Positions 8,753 through 34,311 of a stretch of 64,000 nt of DNA are shown here, piece by piece (within the stretch, counting starts at the first letter, position 1; each line of letters begins with the position of its first letter). The notes below the pieces were generated by a model, which had not been told where the DNA came from, made no database searches, and saw only the letters and a list, made by a program, of their open reading frames with translations. A program made the translations under genes and the position numbers. The stretch is taken from sequence record PV660448; one strand, written 5' to 3'. The stretch is from Escherichia phage LF82-4.

Positions 8753-10321
8753 ATGACTACTATCAAAACTAAAGCTCAGCTCGTAGACAAATGGAAAGAA
8801 CTGCTGGAAGGTGAAGGCCTGCCGGAAATCGCTAATAGCAAGCAGGCTATTATCGCTAAAATCTTCGAAAACCAGGAAAAAGATTTCGAAGTATCCCCTG
8901 AATATAAAGACGAGAAAATCGCTCAGGCATTTGGTTCTTTCTTGACCGAAGCTGAAATTGGTGGTGACCACGGTTATAACGCTCAGAACATCGCAGCAGG
9001 TCAAACCTCTGGTGCAGTAACCCAAATTGGGCCGGCCGTTATGGGTATGGTTCGTCGTGCTATTCCTAATCTGATCGCTTTTGATATTTGTGGTGTTCAG
9101 CCTATGAACAGCCCGACCGGTCAGGTATTTGCTCTCCGTGCAGTATATGGTAAAGACCCTATCGCTGCTGGCGCTAAAGAAGCTTTCCATCCGATGTATG
9201 CCCCAGACGCGATGTTCTCTGGTCAGGGTGCTGCTAAGAAATTCCCAGCTCTGGCTGCTGACACTACTACTGTTGTAGGTGATATCTATACTCACTTCTT
9301 CCAAGAAACTGGTACTGTATATCTGCAAGCTTCTGCTGTCGTAACACTTGATTCCGGTGCAACTGATGCAGCTAAATTAGATGCAGAAGTTAAGAAACAA
9401 ATGGAAGCTGGTGCACTGGTAGAAATCGCTGAAGGTATGGCTACTTCTATCGCTGAACTCCAGGAAGGTTTCAACGGTTCTACCGATAACCCATGGAATG
9501 AAATGGGCTTCCGTATCGATAAACAAGTTATCGAAGCTAAATCTCGCCAGCTGAAAGCTGCTTACTCTATCGAATTAGCACAAGACCTCCGTGCAGTACA
9601 CGGTATGGATGCTGATGCTGAACTGAGCGGTATTCTGGCTACAGAAATTATGCTAGAAATCAACCGTGAAGTTGTTGATTGGATTAACTACTCAGCACAG
9701 GTCGGTAAATCTGGTATGACCCTGACTCCTGGTTCTAAAGCTGGTGTATTTGACTTCCAGGACCCGATTGATATCCGTGGTGCTCGTTGGGCCGGTGAAA
9801 GCTTTAAATCTCTGTTGTTCCAGATTGATAAAGAAGCAGTTGAAATTGCTCGTCAAACCGGTCGTGGTGAAGGTAACTTCATTATCGCTTCCCGTAACGT
9901 AGTTAACGTACTGGCTTCAGTTGATACTGGTATTTCTTACGCTGCACAGGGTCTGGCTTCCGGTTTTAATACCGACACTACTAAGTCTGTATTTGCCGGT
10001 GTACTTGGTGGTAAATACCGCGTATACATCGACCAGTATGCTAAACAGGATTACTTCACCGTTGGTTACAAAGGCGCTAACGAAATGGATGCAGGTATCT
10101 ACTATGCTCCTTACGTTGCACTTACCCCACTGCGTGGTTCCGATCCTAAGAACTTCCAGCCGGTAATGGGCTTTAAAACTCGTTACGGTATCGGTGTTAA
10201 CCCGTTTGCTGAAAGTTCCCTGCAGGCTCCAGGTGCTCGCATCCAGTCCGGTATGCCGTCTATCCTGAACAGCCTTGGTAAGAACGCTTACTTTAGACGC
10301 GTCTACGTTAAAGGAATTTAA
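8753..10321 (+). CDS. 23: Major capsid protein (gp23)
   Basis: 522-aa ORF, T4 gp23-like; TATAAATA at 8609-8616 inside gene 22; hairpin terminator downstream. Confidence 0.97.
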   Translation: MTTIKTKAQLVDKWKELLEGEGLPEIANSKQAIIAKIFENQEKDFEVSPEYKDEKIAQAFGSFLTEAEIGGDHGYNAQNIAAGQTSGAVTQIGPAVMGMVRRAIPNLIAFDICGVQPMNSPTGQVFALRAVYGKDPIAAGAKEAFHPMYAPDAMFSGQGAAKKFPALAADTTTVVGDIYTHFFQETGTVYLQASAVVTLDSGATDAAKLDAEVKKQMEAGALVEIAEGMATSIAELQEGFNGSTDNPWNEMGFRIDKQVIEAKSRQLKAAYSIELAQDLRAVHGMDADAELSGILATEIMLEINREVVDWINYSAQVGKSGMTLTPGSKAGVFDFQDPIDIRGARWAGESFKSLLFQIDKEAVEIARQTGRGEGNFIIASRNVVNVLASVDTGISYAAQGLASGFNTDTTKSVFAGVLGGKYRVYIDQYAKQDYFTVGYKGANEMDAGIYYAPYVALTPLRGSDPKNFQPVMGFKTRYGIGVNPFAESSLQAPGARIQSGMPSILNSLGKNAYFRRVYVKGI

Positions 10322-10348
10322 TGCTTTAACGTTAAAATACATAACCTT

Positions 10349-10370
10349 ATGGGAGACTTCGGTCTCCCAT
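10349..10370 (+). terminator. Intrinsic terminator after gene 23 (UUCG tetraloop)
   Basis: ATGGGAGAC-TTCG-GTCTCCCAT followed by TTCTTGTTTCT. Confidence 0.7.
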
Positions 10371-10378
10371 TCTTGTTT

Positions 10379-11038
10379 CTATAGCTTAAAACAATCATCG
10401 CGTTCATTAATCCAATTTCTTATAGTTTTTGCGGATACGTTAAAGAATTCGGCAGCGTAATCGTAGTGGTTAAATTCATGACTTTTAATAGAAATATCCA
10501 CAAATACAAATTTCTTACCTTTATTAGAATTCTTTCTAATTTTTGCTTTATGCTCTTCTGATAGTTTTCTACCTTTAAGATGAGAATCTCTATTTTTATA
10601 AAACTTTTTATTTGCTATAGATTTGTTTTCTCGATGTTCTTTAGATTCTTTAGAACCTAATTTCTTTTTAGATATTTTAGCCCGAACTTCTTCAGTCATA
10701 CCAGCTTTTGTCTTTTCGGATAACATCTCACGATACCAAGGTTCCTTTAAAGCTACTATAACAGGATTACCCTTACCGCCTAAGGCTGCATTATAAGTAT
10801 CTGTTCTCATGACAAAAGCCTCGTCAACTAGTTCGGCTTCCTTAGCATACATCTCTTCAGATGTTTCGAAATTGAAAAGGATTTCCTTTTTAAAATTCTC
10901 TAAACCGTATTTCTTTATGGATTTTACTATGTTAACCCCAGAACCCATATAAGAATCGTTAACATCTGTAGTGGCATGGGCTCCAACATAAATCTTGTTA
11001 TTAATGAGATTGGTTATTTTGTAAATTAAATAATTCAT
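10379..11038 (-). CDS. segD: GIY-YIG homing endonuclease (SegD-like)
   Basis: 219 aa; N-terminal GIY-YIG module (IYKITNLINNKIYVGA...) plus repeated basic SEEHKAKI-type motifs; sits between genes 23 and 24 as segD does in T4. Confidence 0.8.
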   Translation of the reverse strand: MNYLIYKITNLINNKIYVGAHATTDVNDSYMGSGVNIVKSIKKYGLENFKKEILFNFETSEEMYAKEAELVDEAFVMRTDTYNAALGGKGNPVIVALKEPWYREMLSEKTKAGMTEEVRAKISKKKLGSKESKEHRENKSIANKKFYKNRDSHLKGRKLSEEHKAKIRKNSNKGKKFVFVDISIKSHEFNHYDYAAEFFNVSAKTIRNWINERDDCFKL

Positions 11039-11041
11039 ATT

Positions 11042-11308
11042 TTACGCTGCTTTGACACGACGGTTGATGATATCACGGAAGTTGATACGATTTTCTTGGA
11101 TTTTCAGCCAGTTACCAGATTTGTCTTTGGTATGGGTAGAGTATTCACCATTCCACCAGAAGTCAGTTTCATAAGCCAGGGCTTCGTATTTCTTAACCAA
11201 TGCATTAACTGCATTACCGTTAGGATTGGTACCAAATTTTTCTACCAGGGCTTTGATATCTTTATCAAGAGCGGAAAGTGTAGTACGGATAAAGTTTAAC
11301 TTGTTCAT
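11042..11308 (-). CDS. Hypothetical 88-aa protein immediately upstream of the seg gene
   Basis: ATG with SD GAGGAG; stop 3 nt before seg start; early-promoter-like element upstream; no recognisable motif. Confidence 0.6.
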   Translation of the reverse strand: MNKLNFIRTTLSALDKDIKALVEKFGTNPNGNAVNALVKKYEALAYETDFWWNGEYSTHTKDKSGNWLKIQENRINFRDIINRRVKAA

Positions 11309-11334
11309 TTTTAATCTCCTCTGTAGTTGATAAG

Positions 11335-11368
11335 TCTATAGTATCACATACCAAATACGTTGTAAACA
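11335..11368 (-). promoter_or_regulatory. T4 early-promoter-like element (GTTTAC -35, TACTAT -10)
   Basis: Minus-strand GTTTACAACGTATTTGGTATGTGATACTATAG upstream of the 88-aa ORF. Confidence 0.55.
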
Positions 11369-11373
11369 ATCTT

Positions 11374-11381
11374 TATAAATA
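11374..11381 (+). promoter_or_regulatory. Late promoter TATAAATA (gene 24)
   Basis: Exact TATAAATA ~28 nt upstream of gene 24. Confidence 0.75.
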
Positions 11382-11408
11382 ATCTATATCACATAAGGAA
11401 AAAATGCA

Positions 11409-12692
11409 ATGAGTAAAATCCAAAAATTATTGCGTGAATCTACAACGTCTACTAGCAACTCAATCGGTCGCCCAAATCTCGTTGCTTTGACTCGCGCTAC
11501 GACTAAATTAATATATTCTGACATTGTGGCAACACAAAGAACTAATCAACCTGTTGCTGCTTTTTATGGTATTAAATATCTTAACCCAGACAACGAATTA
11601 ACGTTTAAAACTGGTGCTACTTATGCAGGTGAAGCTGGATATGTAGACCGAGAAAAAATTACCGAGCTCACAGAAGAATCAAAAGCCACACTAAATAAAG
11701 GTGATTTTTTCAAATATAATAATATAGTCTATAAAGTGTTAGAAGATACACCGTTTGCAGATATTCAGGAAAGTGATCTAGAATTAGCTCTTCAGATTGC
11801 GGTCGTTCATTTAAAGGTACGGTTATTTTCAGATGCAGCGGTGACAAGCAAATTTGAAAGCTCCGGTAGCGAAATTTCCGATGCAAGATTCCAAATTAAT
11901 AAATGGCAAACTTCAGTCAAATCTCGTAAACTTAAAACCGGTCTCACGGTTGAATTAGCGCAAGATTTGGAAGCGAATGGATTTGATGCCCCTAACTTCT
12001 TAGAAGATTTGCTTGCTACTGAAATGGCTGATGAAATTAATAAAGATATTCTTCAGTCTTTAATTACTGTATCGAAACGTTATAAAGTTAATGGAATTAC
12101 TGACACTGGATTTATTGACTTGAGCTATGCTTCCGCTCCAGAAGCAGGTCGTTCGTTATATCGAATGGTGTGTGAAATGGTTTCGCATATCCAAAAAGAG
12201 TCAACTTATACTGCAACGTTTTGCGTAGCTTCAGCTCGTGCAGCTGCTATTCTTGCTGCTTCTGGTTGGTTAAAACATAAACCAGAAGATGATAAGTATC
12301 TTTCACAAAATGCTTATGGATTCTTGGCAAATGGATTACCTCTTTACTGCGATACTAACAGTCCATTAGATTATGTGATCGTTGGCGTAGTAGAAAATAT
12401 CGGTGAAAAAGAAATTGTTGGATCAATTTTCTATGCTCCGTATACAGAAGGTCTCGACTTAGATGACCCGGAACATGTTGGTGCATTTAAAGTTGTAGTT
12501 GACCCGGAAAGCTTGCAACCGTCTATCGGTTTATTGGTTAGATATGCTTTATCAGCAAATCCTTACACAGTAGCAAAAGATGAAAAAGAAGCGAGAGTAA
12601 TTGATGGCGGGGACATGGATAAAATGGCAGGACGTTCAGACTTGTCTGTTTTACTCGGTGTTAAATTGCCTAAAATTATTATAGATGAATAA
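11409..12692 (+). CDS. 24: Capsid vertex protein (gp24)
   Basis: 427-aa ORF (T4 gp24 length), gp23 paralog; late promoter at 11374-11381. Confidence 0.95.
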   Translation: MSKIQKLLRESTTSTSNSIGRPNLVALTRATTKLIYSDIVATQRTNQPVAAFYGIKYLNPDNELTFKTGATYAGEAGYVDREKITELTEESKATLNKGDFFKYNNIVYKVLEDTPFADIQESDLELALQIAVVHLKVRLFSDAAVTSKFESSGSEISDARFQINKWQTSVKSRKLKTGLTVELAQDLEANGFDAPNFLEDLLATEMADEINKDILQSLITVSKRYKVNGITDTGFIDLSYASAPEAGRSLYRMVCEMVSHIQKESTYTATFCVASARAAAILAASGWLKHKPEDDKYLSQNAYGFLANGLPLYCDTNSPLDYVIVGVVENIGEKEIVGSIFYAPYTEGLDLDDPEHVGAFKVVVDPESLQPSIGLLVRYALSANPYTVAKDEKEARVIDGGDMDKMAGRSDLSVLLGVKLPKIIIDE

Positions 12693-15534: not shown

Positions 15535-16203
15535 TTATTTTAATGTTACGAAAGAAGAATTACGAGTTTCACGAATTAGAACTGATCCATCACGATTAAT
15601 ATAATAAATTAAGCTAAATAATGTTTGGTGAGCAGAAGCGTGTACAAAACTAGTTGGGCGAGATTTCCAATCTGGGGTTTCGGCTATCCATTGATAAATC
15701 CACCAAGGAACAGTAACATACCCTGGACCTTTGCCTAATTTAATGAGTGTAGGACTAAAATTTTCAGGCAGAACAAATTTTACTTCTTTATTTACCTCTG
15801 ACTCAGGCTCTTTTTCAGATTCAACAACCTGAGTAATTGCTTCTTCGAATTTATCATGGTCGAATTCTTTTTCTTGTTCGACAACTTCTAATACTTCAAC
15901 TTGTTCTGTTGGAGAATCAAACAACAGAATAGCTTCTTCTTTAACCTCTTCGTTGGTGAAATTAACACCGTCCACATCATCTGCGGCAGTAATTAAATCG
16001 GTTATAGATAATCCATCAGTTTCAGGTAATGGTTCATCAGCCAGTGCGTTAAGAGCTTCTTCGATATCAACAACAATATTATCGAATGATTTTGTTTTCT
16101 TAACACTAATGCCAAATTGTTCCGCATATTCGAACAGTTTAGCTTTGGCTTCCTTTTTATCGGAAAGAGCACGTAACTCTTCAATATAGTCTTTATCGAT
16201 CAT
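15535..16203 (-). CDS. inh: Inhibitor of prohead protease (Inh)
   Basis: 222-aa acidic protein at the T4 inh position next to hoc. Confidence 0.8.
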   Translation of the reverse strand: MIDKDYIEELRALSDKKEAKAKLFEYAEQFGISVKKTKSFDNIVVDIEEALNALADEPLPETDGLSITDLITAADDVDGVNFTNEEVKEEAILLFDSPTEQVEVLEVVEQEKEFDHDKFEEAITQVVESEKEPESEVNKEVKFVLPENFSPTLIKLGKGPGYVTVPWWIYQWIAETPDWKSRPTSFVHASAHQTLFSLIYYINRDGSVLIRETRNSSFVTLK

Positions 16204-16253: not shown

Positions 16254-17768
16254 ATGACTGACATTAAAGTACATTTTCATGATTTTAGTCACGTTCGCAT
16301 TGAATGCGACGAAAGTACGTTTTACGAACTTCGTGACTTTTTTAGCTTTGAAGCCGACGGGTATAAATTTAACCCAAAATATCGCTATGGGCATTGGGAT
16401 GGTAGAATTCGACTTTTAGATTACAATCGTTTGTTACCATATGGTCTTGTAGGACAAATAAAAAAGTTCTGTAACAATATGAGTTATTCTATATGGATTG
16501 ACCCTAAAATCTTTGAGACTGAAGACCTTACCAGGGAAGATTTTGACGCGTGGCTTTCTAAACAAGAAATTTATTCAGGCAACGCCAAAATCGAACCACA
16601 TTGGTATCAAAAAGATGCAGTATATGAAGGACTAGTTAATCGTCGTCGAATTTTAAACCTTCCGACATCAGCAGGTAAATCACTAATCCAAGCACTTTTA
16701 GCTCGGTATTATCTAGAGAACTATGAAGGTAAAATTCTCATTATCGTCCCTACAACAGCATTGACAACCCAGATGGCTAATGATTTTGTTGATTATCGCT
16801 TGTTTAGTCATTCGATGATTAAGAAAATTGGCGGTGGTGCTGATAAAGCAGACAGAGCTAAAAATGACGCTCCAATTATTGTTGGCACGTGGCAAACGGT
16901 AGTTAAGCAGCCTAAAGAATGGTTCTCTCAGTTCGGTATGATGATGAACGATGAATGCCACTTAGCAACAGGTAAAAGTATTTCTTCAATCATCTCAGGA
17001 TTAAATAATTGCATGTTTAAATTCGGTTTATCCGGCTCATTAAGAGACGGAAAAGCCAATGTAATGCAGTACGTAGGAATGTTCGGTGAAATCTTCCGTC
17101 CTGTTAGCACGTCTAAATTAATGGAAGACGGACAAGTAACTGAGCTTAAGATTAATAGTATTTTCCTTCGTTATCCGGACGAATTCACCGTTAAATTAAA
17201 AGGTAAAACATACCAAGAAGAAGTTAAAATTATTACCGGACTAAAACGTCGTACAAAGTGGATTGCTCAACTTTCGGTCAAATTGGCTAAGAAAGACGAG
17301 AACGCCTTTGTAATGTTTAAACATGTTACACACGGTAAAGAAATATTTGAAGCTATTAAAGAGCTTGGATACGAAAAAGTTTATTACGTATCAGGTGAAG
17401 TTGATACTGAAACACGTAACGCACTTAAAGTCATGGCAGAAAATGGTAAAGGCATTATTATTGTCGCATCATATGGAGTATTCTCTACTGGTATTTCAGT
17501 CAAGAATCTTCATCATGTTATTTTTGCCCATGGTGTTAAATCAAAAATTATCGTACTTCAAACCGTAGGTCGCGTGCTTCGTAAGCATGGTTCTAAAGCT
17601 GTTGCTACAGTTTGGGATCTCATCGATGACGCAGGTGTAAAACCTAAATCATTAAATACTAAAAAGAAGTATACTCATCTTAATTACTTGTTAAAACACG
17701 GTATTGATCGTATCCAACGTTACGCTGATGAGAAATTTAACTATGTAATGAAAACAATTAATTTATAA
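16254..17768 (+). CDS. uvsW: UvsW DNA/RNA helicase (SF2)
   Basis: 504 aa; helicase motifs (LPTSAGKS Walker A, DECH box); late promoter at 16217-16224. Confidence 0.95.
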   Translation: MTDIKVHFHDFSHVRIECDESTFYELRDFFSFEADGYKFNPKYRYGHWDGRIRLLDYNRLLPYGLVGQIKKFCNNMSYSIWIDPKIFETEDLTREDFDAWLSKQEIYSGNAKIEPHWYQKDAVYEGLVNRRRILNLPTSAGKSLIQALLARYYLENYEGKILIIVPTTALTTQMANDFVDYRLFSHSMIKKIGGGADKADRAKNDAPIIVGTWQTVVKQPKEWFSQFGMMMNDECHLATGKSISSIISGLNNCMFKFGLSGSLRDGKANVMQYVGMFGEIFRPVSTSKLMEDGQVTELKINSIFLRYPDEFTVKLKGKTYQEEVKIITGLKRRTKWIAQLSVKLAKKDENAFVMFKHVTHGKEIFEAIKELGYEKVYYVSGEVDTETRNALKVMAENGKGIIIVASYGVFSTGISVKNLHHVIFAHGVKSKIIVLQTVGRVLRKHGSKAVATVWDLIDDAGVKPKSLNTKKKYTHLNYLLKHGIDRIQRYADEKFNYVMKTINL

Positions 17769-34071: not shown

Positions 34072-34108
34072 ACTTTTTTTAAACTTTTTCTGCCCTAAAC
34101 GCACAAAA

Positions 34109-34126
34109 GGGAGACCGAAGTCTCCC
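34109..34126 (-). terminator. Hairpin terminator after the 59-aa basic ORF
   Basis: GGGAGAC-UUCG-GUCUCCC followed by UUUUGU on minus strand. Confidence 0.65.
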
Positions 34127-34131
34127 TAAAA

Positions 34132-34311
34132 TTATGCAACAACCTTTCCAAAACGAGAAGCATCATCTCGAAGAACTGCACGTGCTCTGCGCATGATCTT
34201 CTCAACTGTTTGATTAATACGAGAGTTCGACCCACGCTTGTATCCAGCGCGTTTAGAGGTACCATCAACTTTCTTTTCAACTGCTTTCTTTGCTTTAGCT
34301 TGTTTTGCCAT
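34132..34311 (-). CDS. Small highly basic protein (59 aa), not in the ORF track
   Basis: Hand-translated: MAKQAKAKKAVEKKVDGTSKRAGYKRGSNSRINQTVEKIMRRARAVLRDDASRFGKVVA; followed by GGGAGAC-UUCG-GUCUCCC terminator. Confidence 0.55.
   Translation of the reverse strand: MAKQAKAKKAVEKKVDGTSKRAGYKRGSNSRINQTVEKIMRRARAVLRDDASRFGKVVA

Follow-up and report, generated by a model that had tools for sequence, protein, structure and literature searches.

The sequence considered here is a stretch of 64,000 nucleotides (nt) from Escherichia phage LF82-4 (sequence record PV660448), referred to below as the window, in which the minus strand of the interval between genes 23 and 24 carries two adjacent open reading frames (ORFs), one encoding 219 amino acids (aa) at 10379-11038 and one encoding 88 aa at 11042-11308, both read directly from the ORF listing. 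The longer ORF encodes a predicted homing endonuclease of the SegD type and the shorter one is a gene resident in this interval in many T-even phages, and the two came into a Mosigvirus genome as a single 944-nt block of Dhakavirus type, which displaced the resident allele of the small gene. An initial annotation, made from the letters of the sequence, had already described a minus-strand SegD-like endonuclease of the GIY-YIG class between genes 23 and 24, with an 88-aa ORF immediately upstream of it across a 3-nt gap and with a strong Shine-Dalgarno (SD) sequence and an early-promoter-like element ahead of that ORF. All of these observations hold: the endonuclease is 57.5% identical to T4 SegD and has the same location and orientation, the gap is found both in the ORF listing and in the sequence as read, GAGGAG stands 7 nt before the ATG, and the promoter-like element (TTTACA-17-TACTAT) belongs to a stereotyped class. 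The features of the locus are as follows.

8753-10321, plus strand: gene 23, major capsid protein, 522 aa, the left flank, with Mosigvirus-type sequence (ORF listing; annotation)
10349-10370, no strand assigned: G+C-rich hairpin GGGAGAC-UUCG-GUCUCCC as read on the plus strand, the gene 23 terminator (terminator scan)
10372-11315, minus strand: imported cassette of 944 nt, consisting of the Dhakavirus-type 88-aa ORF and segD (comparison with phage LF82-41)
10379-11038, minus strand: SegD-type free-standing GIY-YIG homing endonuclease, predicted, 219 aa (phrog_314, PADLOC, alignment with T4 SegD)
11039-11041, minus strand: 3-nt spacer AAT, running from 11041 to 11039, after the TAA stop of the small ORF and before the segD start codon ATG (sequence read)
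11042-11308, minus strand: small basic early-type protein of 88 aa, phrog_6003 family, JS98 ORF173c / VR7ORF190c type (profile match)
11316-11321, minus strand: SD sequence GAGGAG of the small ORF, with the ATG 7 nt further on; right boundary of the imported tract (sequence read)
11338-11367, minus strand: early-type sigma-70 promoter GTTTACA-N-TG-n-TACTAT, predicted, of Mosigvirus origin (promoter scan)
11374-11381, plus strand: late-promoter box TATAAATA for gene 24, whose ATG (11409) lies 27 nt downstream (pattern search)
11409-12692, plus strand: gene 24, capsid vertex protein, 427 aa, the right flank, with Mosigvirus-type sequence (ORF listing; annotation)

The region is 100% identical in Escherichia phage LF82-1 and in ten sibling isolates. 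The record of LF82-1 gives the label 'major head protein' to each of the flanking ORFs; the annotation of related records identifies the downstream one as the capsid vertex protein, i.e. gp24. The late-promoter box on the plus strand and the early promoter on the minus strand stand back to back, and the hairpin at the opposite end of the interval, which forms the left boundary of the imported tract, is the same in relatives with segD (seg-plus) and without it (seg-less).

The backbone of the window phage is that of a Mosigvirus, as seen on both sides of the interval. Over its last 300 nt, gene 23 agrees with Mosigvirus sequences at 99-99.7% identity and with Dhakavirus sequences at 80-83%, and the first 300 nt of gene 24 show 95-97% against 74-76% (ATK47, mobillu, ST2 and SQ17 representing Mosigvirus for these flanking genes). 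Between them, the small ORF is 91-94% identical to its Dhakavirus counterparts and matches the resident Mosigvirus allele (that of ST2) over 35 nt only, at 80%; segD, which the resident Mosigvirus allele lacks, is 83-90% identical to Dhakavirus copies. The edges of the foreign sequence are seen most clearly in the seg-less sibling LF82-41, obtained from the same host and source, which is identical to the window over 10000-10371 and 11316-11395 and diverges only between these segments. The foreign tract, 10372-11315, begins just beyond the hairpin and ends in the spacer that separates the SD sequence from the start codon of the small ORF; it nearly coincides with the interval flagged in the initial annotation (10379-11308). 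The native allele that it replaced is 32% identical to the incoming Dhakavirus-type ORF.

The junction between the two ORFs reads GTCAAAGCAGCGTAAAATATG in the seg-plus copies of both Dhakavirus (IME08, 04086) and Mosigvirus (the window); the seg-less alleles read GTTAAGATTGCATAGTACAGAAAC, and the small ORF ends there in KIA-stop instead of the KAA-stop of the seg-plus copies. Because the same junction is found in the Dhakavirus and the Mosigvirus copies, there was one original insertion of segD, and it fell within the final three codons of an ORF of Dhakavirus type. A replacement of the C-terminus of the small ORF by segD, which was considered when tblastn matches in seg-less phages reached residues 1-72 only, was rejected, as direct alignment shows the whole ORF to be conserved with KIA to KAA as the only change, and the short reach to be an artefact of the search. 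Among about 150 records with Mosigvirus-type flanks, 29 carry the ORF together with segD, one (SQ17) carries the Dhakavirus-type ORF alone, and about 120 carry the native allele; the Dhakavirus-type ORF is accompanied by segD in 29 of 30 cases. The presence of segD is polymorphic among close relatives, with LF82-41 and the approximately 120 other Mosigvirus records lacking it. Three different upstream recombination endpoints are found in seg-plus Mosigvirus phages: at the SD sequence in the window, approximately 10 nt further up in ATK47 and mobillu, and upstream of the promoter in F2. The synonymous divergence (dS) of segD is 0.41-0.57 between the window and the two Dhakavirus copies and 0.03-0.17 between the window and other Mosigvirus copies, and the higher values toward Dhakavirus fit an origin of segD in Dhakavirus followed by a recent spread in Mosigvirus. 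In passing, the taxonomy lines of two of these records are apparently wrong: F2 is filed as a Tequatrovirus and ST2 under Guernseyvirinae/Kagunavirus, their 23/24 flanks being 97-99.7% identical to Mosigvirus.

The small ORF has a history of its own at this site. It matches phrog_6003 over its full length (E = 1.2e-48, with residues 1-88 aligned to positions 1-88 of a 90-position profile). The Dhakavirus/Gaprivervirus type is found by tblastn in 119 phage records and the Mosigvirus-type allele is present in 121, giving a family of about 240 T-even phage records, of which about 200 are without SegD; the arrangement of ORF plus segD occurs in only 37. All copies inspected in T-even phages have the same site and orientation. 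In the Dhakaviruses MX01 and JS10 (approximately 97% identical to the window protein; 97% for MX01 ORF174) and Bp7 (approximately 94%), the ORF occupies the site without an endonuclease, as it does, antisense to the flanking genes, in the Gaprivervirus VR7 (65%) and in a metagenomic T4-like contig. The complete syntenic arrangement, with the ORF antisense between genes 23 and 24 behind its own promoter and ending at the shared hairpin, recurs in MX01, VR7, JS10, Bp7, SQ17, G28 and the metagenomic contig, and likewise for the diverged allele in ST2 and LF82-41. The typical Mosigvirus has an 89-aa ORF at this position, between an identical kind of promoter and hairpin, which is 32% identical to the window protein and clearly homologous to it (BLASTP E = 2e-13), so that the gene exists in three allelic types: Dhakavirus, Gaprivervirus (65% identical) and Mosigvirus (32% identical). 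T4 has segD and no small ORF, and T2 has an empty 23-24 interval of 83 nt. The gene is dispensable, since T4 and T2 do without it. Tequatrovirus G28 carries a Dhakavirus-type ORF (672-938 of the stretch inspected, approximately 93% identical) and no segD, and EP01, W143, KIT06 and GEP001 resemble it in coverage pattern and in a T4-like flank identity of approximately 86%; as T4 and T2 have no such ORF, the small gene appears to have crossed into Tequatrovirus too, or else segD was lost after entry. More distant homologues, 35-40% identical, are found in an Acinetobacter phage and a metagenomic contig, where they lie in runs of small genes on the same strand; the neighbours of these two show no Pfam match, no endonuclease annotation and no annotated capsid gene adjacent. 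Two further observations concern the family records: VR7 and the metagenomic T4-like contig have two tandem copies of gene 24 beside the small ORF, and a 160-aa metagenome protein of the European Nucleotide Archive (ENA), on a 701-nt contig, matches the core of the small ORF with its C-terminal 35 residues (VKALVKKYETMAYATDFWWNGEYSTHTKD) and has an unrelated N-terminus, which most likely makes it an assembly chimera.

The phrog_6003 gene is therefore a resident of the 23-24 interval in many T-even phages, and neither gene of the pair needs the other, since about 200 family members occur without SegD, and T4 and Cronobacter phage vB_CsaM_leN have SegD without the ORF. In this light, what the initial annotation had proposed for the small gene holds in part. 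Its remark that the ORF could not be assigned to any family is superseded by the phrog_6003 match; for function it stands, as the Pfam, NCBIfam, PADLOC and fold searches described below leave the protein unassigned. Hitch-hiking cargo is an apt description of the allele, which travelled with segD in the 944-nt block, and a poor one of the gene, which is not specific to the endonuclease. The other suggestion, an accessory factor of the endonuclease, is contradicted by the lack of obligate co-occurrence (about 200 of the about 240 family records being without SegD). The comparison of the interval across genomes, proposed there as a check, places the ORF, as a hypothetical protein, in Dhakavirus, Gaprivervirus, some Tequatrovirus and, as the 32% allele, most Mosigvirus; it is not literally a conserved annotated T4 gene, T4 and T2 lacking it, and it is a conserved resident in the relatives of T4. 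The absence of conservation that the initial annotation had also envisaged is countered by the full-length profile match and by a ratio of nonsynonymous to synonymous divergence (dN/dS) of 0.04-0.14, with dS up to 0.65.

The endonuclease matches phrog_314 ('homing endonuclease', E = 1.9e-53) and the PADLOC HEase model (E = 1.8e-22). Its Pfam scores lie below the curated cut-offs (SegE_GIY-YIG, 20 bits vs 25; GIY-YIG, 16.2 vs 22.6) and TIGR01453 is narrowly missed (55.6, cut-off 56.05); the weak Pfam matches give a domain order of an N-terminal GIY-YIG domain, a NUMOD3-like linker and a C-terminal helix-turn-helix. Alignment with T4 SegD extends across residues 1-219 at 57.5-58% identity and leaves invariant I5-Y6, Y17-G19, Y30-M31-G32-S33-G34, E67 and Y82-N83. 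The full-length similarity, together with the same interval and the same antisense orientation, makes the window endonuclease an orthologue of T4 SegD. It is free-standing, i.e. an intergenic ORF flanked by two complete genes, and a search of Rfam families over 10200-11500 gave no match, to a group I intron or to anything else. The GC content of segD is 31.5%, as against 38% for the window, and its codon usage is average. The gene is intact in all six copies examined, with a dN/dS of 0.08-0.24, and this value, along with that of the small ORF, shows both ORFs to be real genes under purifying selection. SegD-like genes of 45-51% identity are present in Cronobacter, Klebsiella and Raoultella phages; the one in phage vB_CsaM_leN (2501-3139 of the stretch inspected) lies in the 23-24 interval as well, in the same orientation as genes 23 and 24 and without the small ORF. 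The family thus appears to have colonised this interval in both orientations, which hints that its target may be a conserved sequence inside gene 23 or 24 rather than the small ORF. The comparative signature is compatible with site-specific cleavage and homing by the window enzyme.

Public annotation of the locus is uneven: an intact 223-aa SegD ORF in phage 04086 (about 330-1000 of the stretch inspected) is left unannotated in the public record, and the small ORF and segD are both missing from the annotation of the ATK47 records, the GenBank version calling gp24 a 'homing endonuclease'. A second copy of the locus was not found within the window, the only other match being one of 32 nt and hairpin-like character: a stretch at 34106-34136 is 87.5% identical, inverted, to the region of the gene 23 terminator hairpin (query positions 41-72 of 10300-11420) and is probably another terminator of that type. 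Elsewhere in the window, the junction of inh and uvsW has no segE, just as the initial annotation had stated; the inh homologue (15535-16203, minus strand) and the UvsW-type helicase gene (16254-17768, plus strand) are separated by a gap of 50 nt with no ORF.

The promoter scan places TTTACA-17-TACTAT, with TG upstream of the -10 part, at 11366-11338 on the minus strand, and phage ST2 and LF82-41 share this segment at 100% identity. The element is a member of the class GTTTAC-N17-19-TANNNT, of which a pattern search of the window found 12 sites, every one of them on the minus strand, where 2.8 +/- 1.7 would be expected (none of 100 shuffled sequences reached 12). They lie at the following positions.

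11338, 14191, 25871, 26681, 32512 and 33599, minus strand: GTTTAC-N17-19-TANNNT sites
34043, 37495, 39619, 41025, 42208 and 50552, minus strand: GTTTAC-N17-19-TANNNT sites

The -10 region of this class often reads GTGATACTAT or GTGTTACTAT, and the class fits a T-even early promoter. Ahead of segD there is no SD sequence in the sequence as read, nor is any RNA structure evident at the junction that would mask its start (z = +1.1). As segD has neither a promoter nor an SD sequence of its own, we infer that the promoter at 11338-11367 would drive both genes, and the position of the segD ATG, 3 nt past the stop of the small ORF, points to translational coupling by reinitiation. The resulting early minus-strand transcript would also run into the gene 23 hairpin at 10349-10370. 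In T4, a TTTACA-17-TATTAT element with TG, agreeing with 10 of 12 consensus positions, precedes segD (2443-2471 of the T4 stretch) at a position matching that of the small-ORF promoter; it is missing from T2, which has no segD. A 2010 review (PMC2988022) states that no segD-specific promoter has been identified in T4. The presence of this promoter-like element ahead of T4 segD, and not in T2, suggests that the T4 cassette may have been derived from an ORF-plus-segD arrangement by loss of the ORF.

Several properties of the small protein set it apart from its neighbour. Its optimal-codon fraction (by E. coli usage) of 0.714 ranks third among 82 window ORFs, after gp23 (0.771) and the scaffold protein gp22 (0.716); the window median is 0.49, and other alleles of the small ORF range from 0.55 to 0.73. 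Proteins of the family are basic throughout, with isoelectric points of 9.3-9.8 (9.6 for the window member). Together with the promoter and the ribosome-binding site (RBS), the codon usage indicates that this is probably an abundant early protein; a search by accession terms for early-expression data on the small gene gave nothing, no transcriptome paper having been specifically looked for, and literature searches by locus name likewise brought up nothing relevant. The AlphaFold2 model, built from an alignment of 11 sequences, has a predicted local distance difference test score (pLDDT) of 89 and consists of a helix (residues 3-25), a second helix (31-48), a beta hairpin (52-61/67-71) and a third helix (77-87); an invariant N-G-N lies in the loop joining the first two predicted helices. 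Searches for a known domain or fold were negative: Pfam gave only DUF5380 at E = 0.17, NCBIfam nothing credible (one chance-level match, 11.9 bits against a cut-off of 600 bits), and PADLOC no match; the best hit of a PDB sequence-profile search, at E = 0.02, was a chance helical match; Foldseek against the PDB returned no match at E <= 0.001, and in the viral structure library nothing matched outside the family itself (the Acinetobacter-phage homologue). An exhaustive profile search pointed to large repeat proteins (best E = 3.7e-13), and these were rejected as homologues after the two best were re-scored, their scores adding up from 9-12 weak matches, none above 12.6 bits, to a short W-x-G-x-x-S-T...SGNW hairpin motif or a helical segment.

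The best guess for the role of the small protein is a nucleic-acid-binding factor or one that interacts with the host or with competitors. It may be speculated further that phrog_6003 is an abundant early effector with a novel small alpha/beta fold, that its divergent alleles fit different host or competitor targets, and that the SegD cassette drives one of these alleles from Dhakavirus into Mosigvirus, a combined proposal that we regard as tentative and rather doubtful. Were it true, the effector might be, e.g., a nucleic-acid-binding host-takeover or anti-defence protein, and a selfish endonuclease would decide which version of an accessory phenotype a phage has. The protein is in any case well conserved, and the sequenced coliphages that have it number more than 200, therapeutic candidates among them.

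In the model that we favour, with moderate confidence, a small early gene with its own promoter and strong RBS is resident antisense to two late capsid genes and ends at the gene 23 hairpin. A gene of the SegD family was inserted once, within the final three codons of an allele of Dhakavirus type and directly ahead of that hairpin, where it would be co-transcribed from the early promoter of the small gene and translated at a low level via termination-reinitiation. The unit of Dhakavirus-type ORF plus segD then moved into Mosigvirus genomes, including that of the window phage, most likely through a double-strand break made by SegD in a co-infecting seg-less genome and repaired from a seg-plus genome, with resolution in the shared promoter/RBS region on one side and at the shared hairpin on the other. 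As the two alleles of the ORF share only 35 nt at 80% identity, resolution would fall outside them and the complete ORF would travel with segD. The sequence comparisons show the layout of the locus, the residence of the family at this site, the insertion junction common to all seg-plus copies compared and the import as a block with its precise edges; abundant early expression, translational coupling and a cut by SegD as the first step are inferred. Homing and the co-conversion of flanking markers are established for T4 SegB, SegE, SegF and SegG (PMC2988022; PMC2330249).

Transfer started by a SegD cut has to be weighed against ordinary homologous recombination between co-infecting T-even phages, in which SegD would be passive and possibly non-homing, and its linkage to the ORF would simply reflect descent from one recombinant. 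The title of a 2018 paper (Virology 515:215), as cited in PMC10448857, reports that T4 SegD does not home, so that transfer driven by cleavage is not assured for the orthologue in the window. The Dhakavirus-type ORF occurs without segD in Mosigvirus SQ17 and in Tequatroviruses such as G28, which shows that movement of the ORF, or loss of segD, can be independent of the proposed unit. The 29 seg-plus Mosigvirus records are not independent, many being near-identical (eleven are LF82 isolates of this kind), and the remaining ones may form one clade; T-even genomes are, moreover, highly mosaic. All of this weighs against the favoured account and, for the most part, toward passive exchange, and the hairpin at 10349-10370 adds a separate difficulty for the transcript, in that it has no adjacent U-tract in the minus direction, making termination of the early transcript there uncertain. 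What speaks for an active SegD is that the edges of the foreign tract are exactly those of the ORF-plus-segD unit, that the upstream endpoint differs among phages, the three positions pointing to recombination that recurred at this site, that none of the six segD copies examined is disrupted and all show purifying selection, and that SegD-family genes also occupy this interval in T4 and, judging from the annotated regions inspected, in Cronobacter phage leN, as is typical of site-specific invasion. Passive recombination is on this evidence a serious rival, though less likely than the favoured account.

Three further explanations concern the small gene itself. That the protein serves SegD as a dedicated partner (e.g., as a subunit for specificity, immunity or regulation), making the pair a two-gene mobile module, is suggested by the 3-nt spacing on the same strand, the single promoter and the joint import in the window phage; it is nevertheless very improbable in view of the approximately 200 family members at the site without SegD, the SegD genes of T4 and leN without such an ORF, the distant homologues (Acinetobacter phage, metagenomic contig) without endonuclease-annotated neighbours, and the sharply different composition of the two genes (optimal-codon fraction 0.71 vs 0.48, GC 39% vs 31.5%). 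A role connected with the capsid (e.g., as assembly chaperone, as internal protein or in protection from host defences that sense the capsid) would explain the fixed position between genes 23 and 24, which is conserved in four genera of Tevenvirinae, and would accord with a codon optimality on par with gp23 and gp22. In this connection L-V-E at residues 21-23 was noted, presumably resembling the cleavage consensus of the prohead protease; the reading of this motif as a protease site or capsid-targeting signal was rejected, as it is not conserved (VR7 has LVN). Since, in addition, the gene runs opposite to the late genes behind a promoter of early type instead of TATAAATA, T4 and T2 assemble normal capsids without it, its distant homologues are not annotated beside any capsid gene, and its model has no significant match to solved structures, capsid proteins included, a capsid function appears quite improbable. 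Finally, only the small size and the lack of a known domain would favour a chance open frame with no gene in it, an idea of practically negligible probability that the conservation pattern of the family refutes: selective constraint is strong at the dN/dS and dS given above, members are 32-99% identical over the full length, the predicted structure is confident (pLDDT 89), and the RBS and promoter are strong.

Nothing in these findings overturns current understanding, and public records already annotate the pair as 'homing endonuclease' and 'hypothetical protein'. With the window endonuclease the SegD group gains a new member, located at the canonical site of the group, and the small ORF belongs to an already catalogued hypothetical family; what is added here is the resident status and allelic structure of the small gene, the nucleotide-level boundaries of a segD-linked allele replacement across genera, the promoter-like element ahead of T4 segD, and the signs of an abundant early small protein of unassigned fold. 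If the favoured account of SegD-driven transfer is right, the locus would be a clean natural case of a free-standing homing endonuclease dragging a divergent accessory allele between phage genera. The findings also bear on T4 SegD, the least understood of the Seg proteins. The pair of LF82-1 (seg-plus) and LF82-41 (seg-less), sharing host and source, makes the account directly testable by crosses.

Among known systems, the closest is T4 SegD, with which the window gene shares, besides 57.5-58% identity, the domain order, the interval and the orientation antisense to genes 23 and 24, a stop codon a few nt from the gene 23 terminator hairpin and a homologous promoter-like element upstream. The two differ in that T4 segD follows directly behind that element and a GGAG, whereas the window segD has no SD sequence and stands 3 nt behind the 88-aa ORF. 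Promoters specific to T4 endonucleases are middle or late (PMC2988022), whereas the only promoter upstream of the window segD is of early type. The small ORF is a full-length member of the group of hypothetical proteins comprising phrog_6003, JS98 ORF173c, VR7ORF190c and EpJS10_0170 (97% identical to MX01/JS10), distinguished from the seg-less members only by its last residues, KAA instead of KIA. The association of an endonuclease with the edge of a foreign tract, as seen in the LF82-1/LF82-41 pair, whose genomes are otherwise near-identical, resembles that of nuclease genes at the boundaries of phage genetic exchange (Barth et al. 2023, PMC10448857), where SegD literature appears only as reference 18. 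The free-standing GIY-YIG endonucleases SegF (gene 56), SegG (gene 32), SegB (tRNA region) and SegE (uvsW) of T4 are likewise polymorphic among close relatives and transfer flanking sequence with variable endpoints (PMC2988022; PMC2330249), giving rise to localised marker exclusion and co-conversion. The window locus differs from these systems in that co-conversion takes in the complete, highly divergent allele of a neighbouring accessory gene, and in that the transfer crosses genera, from Dhakavirus to Mosigvirus.

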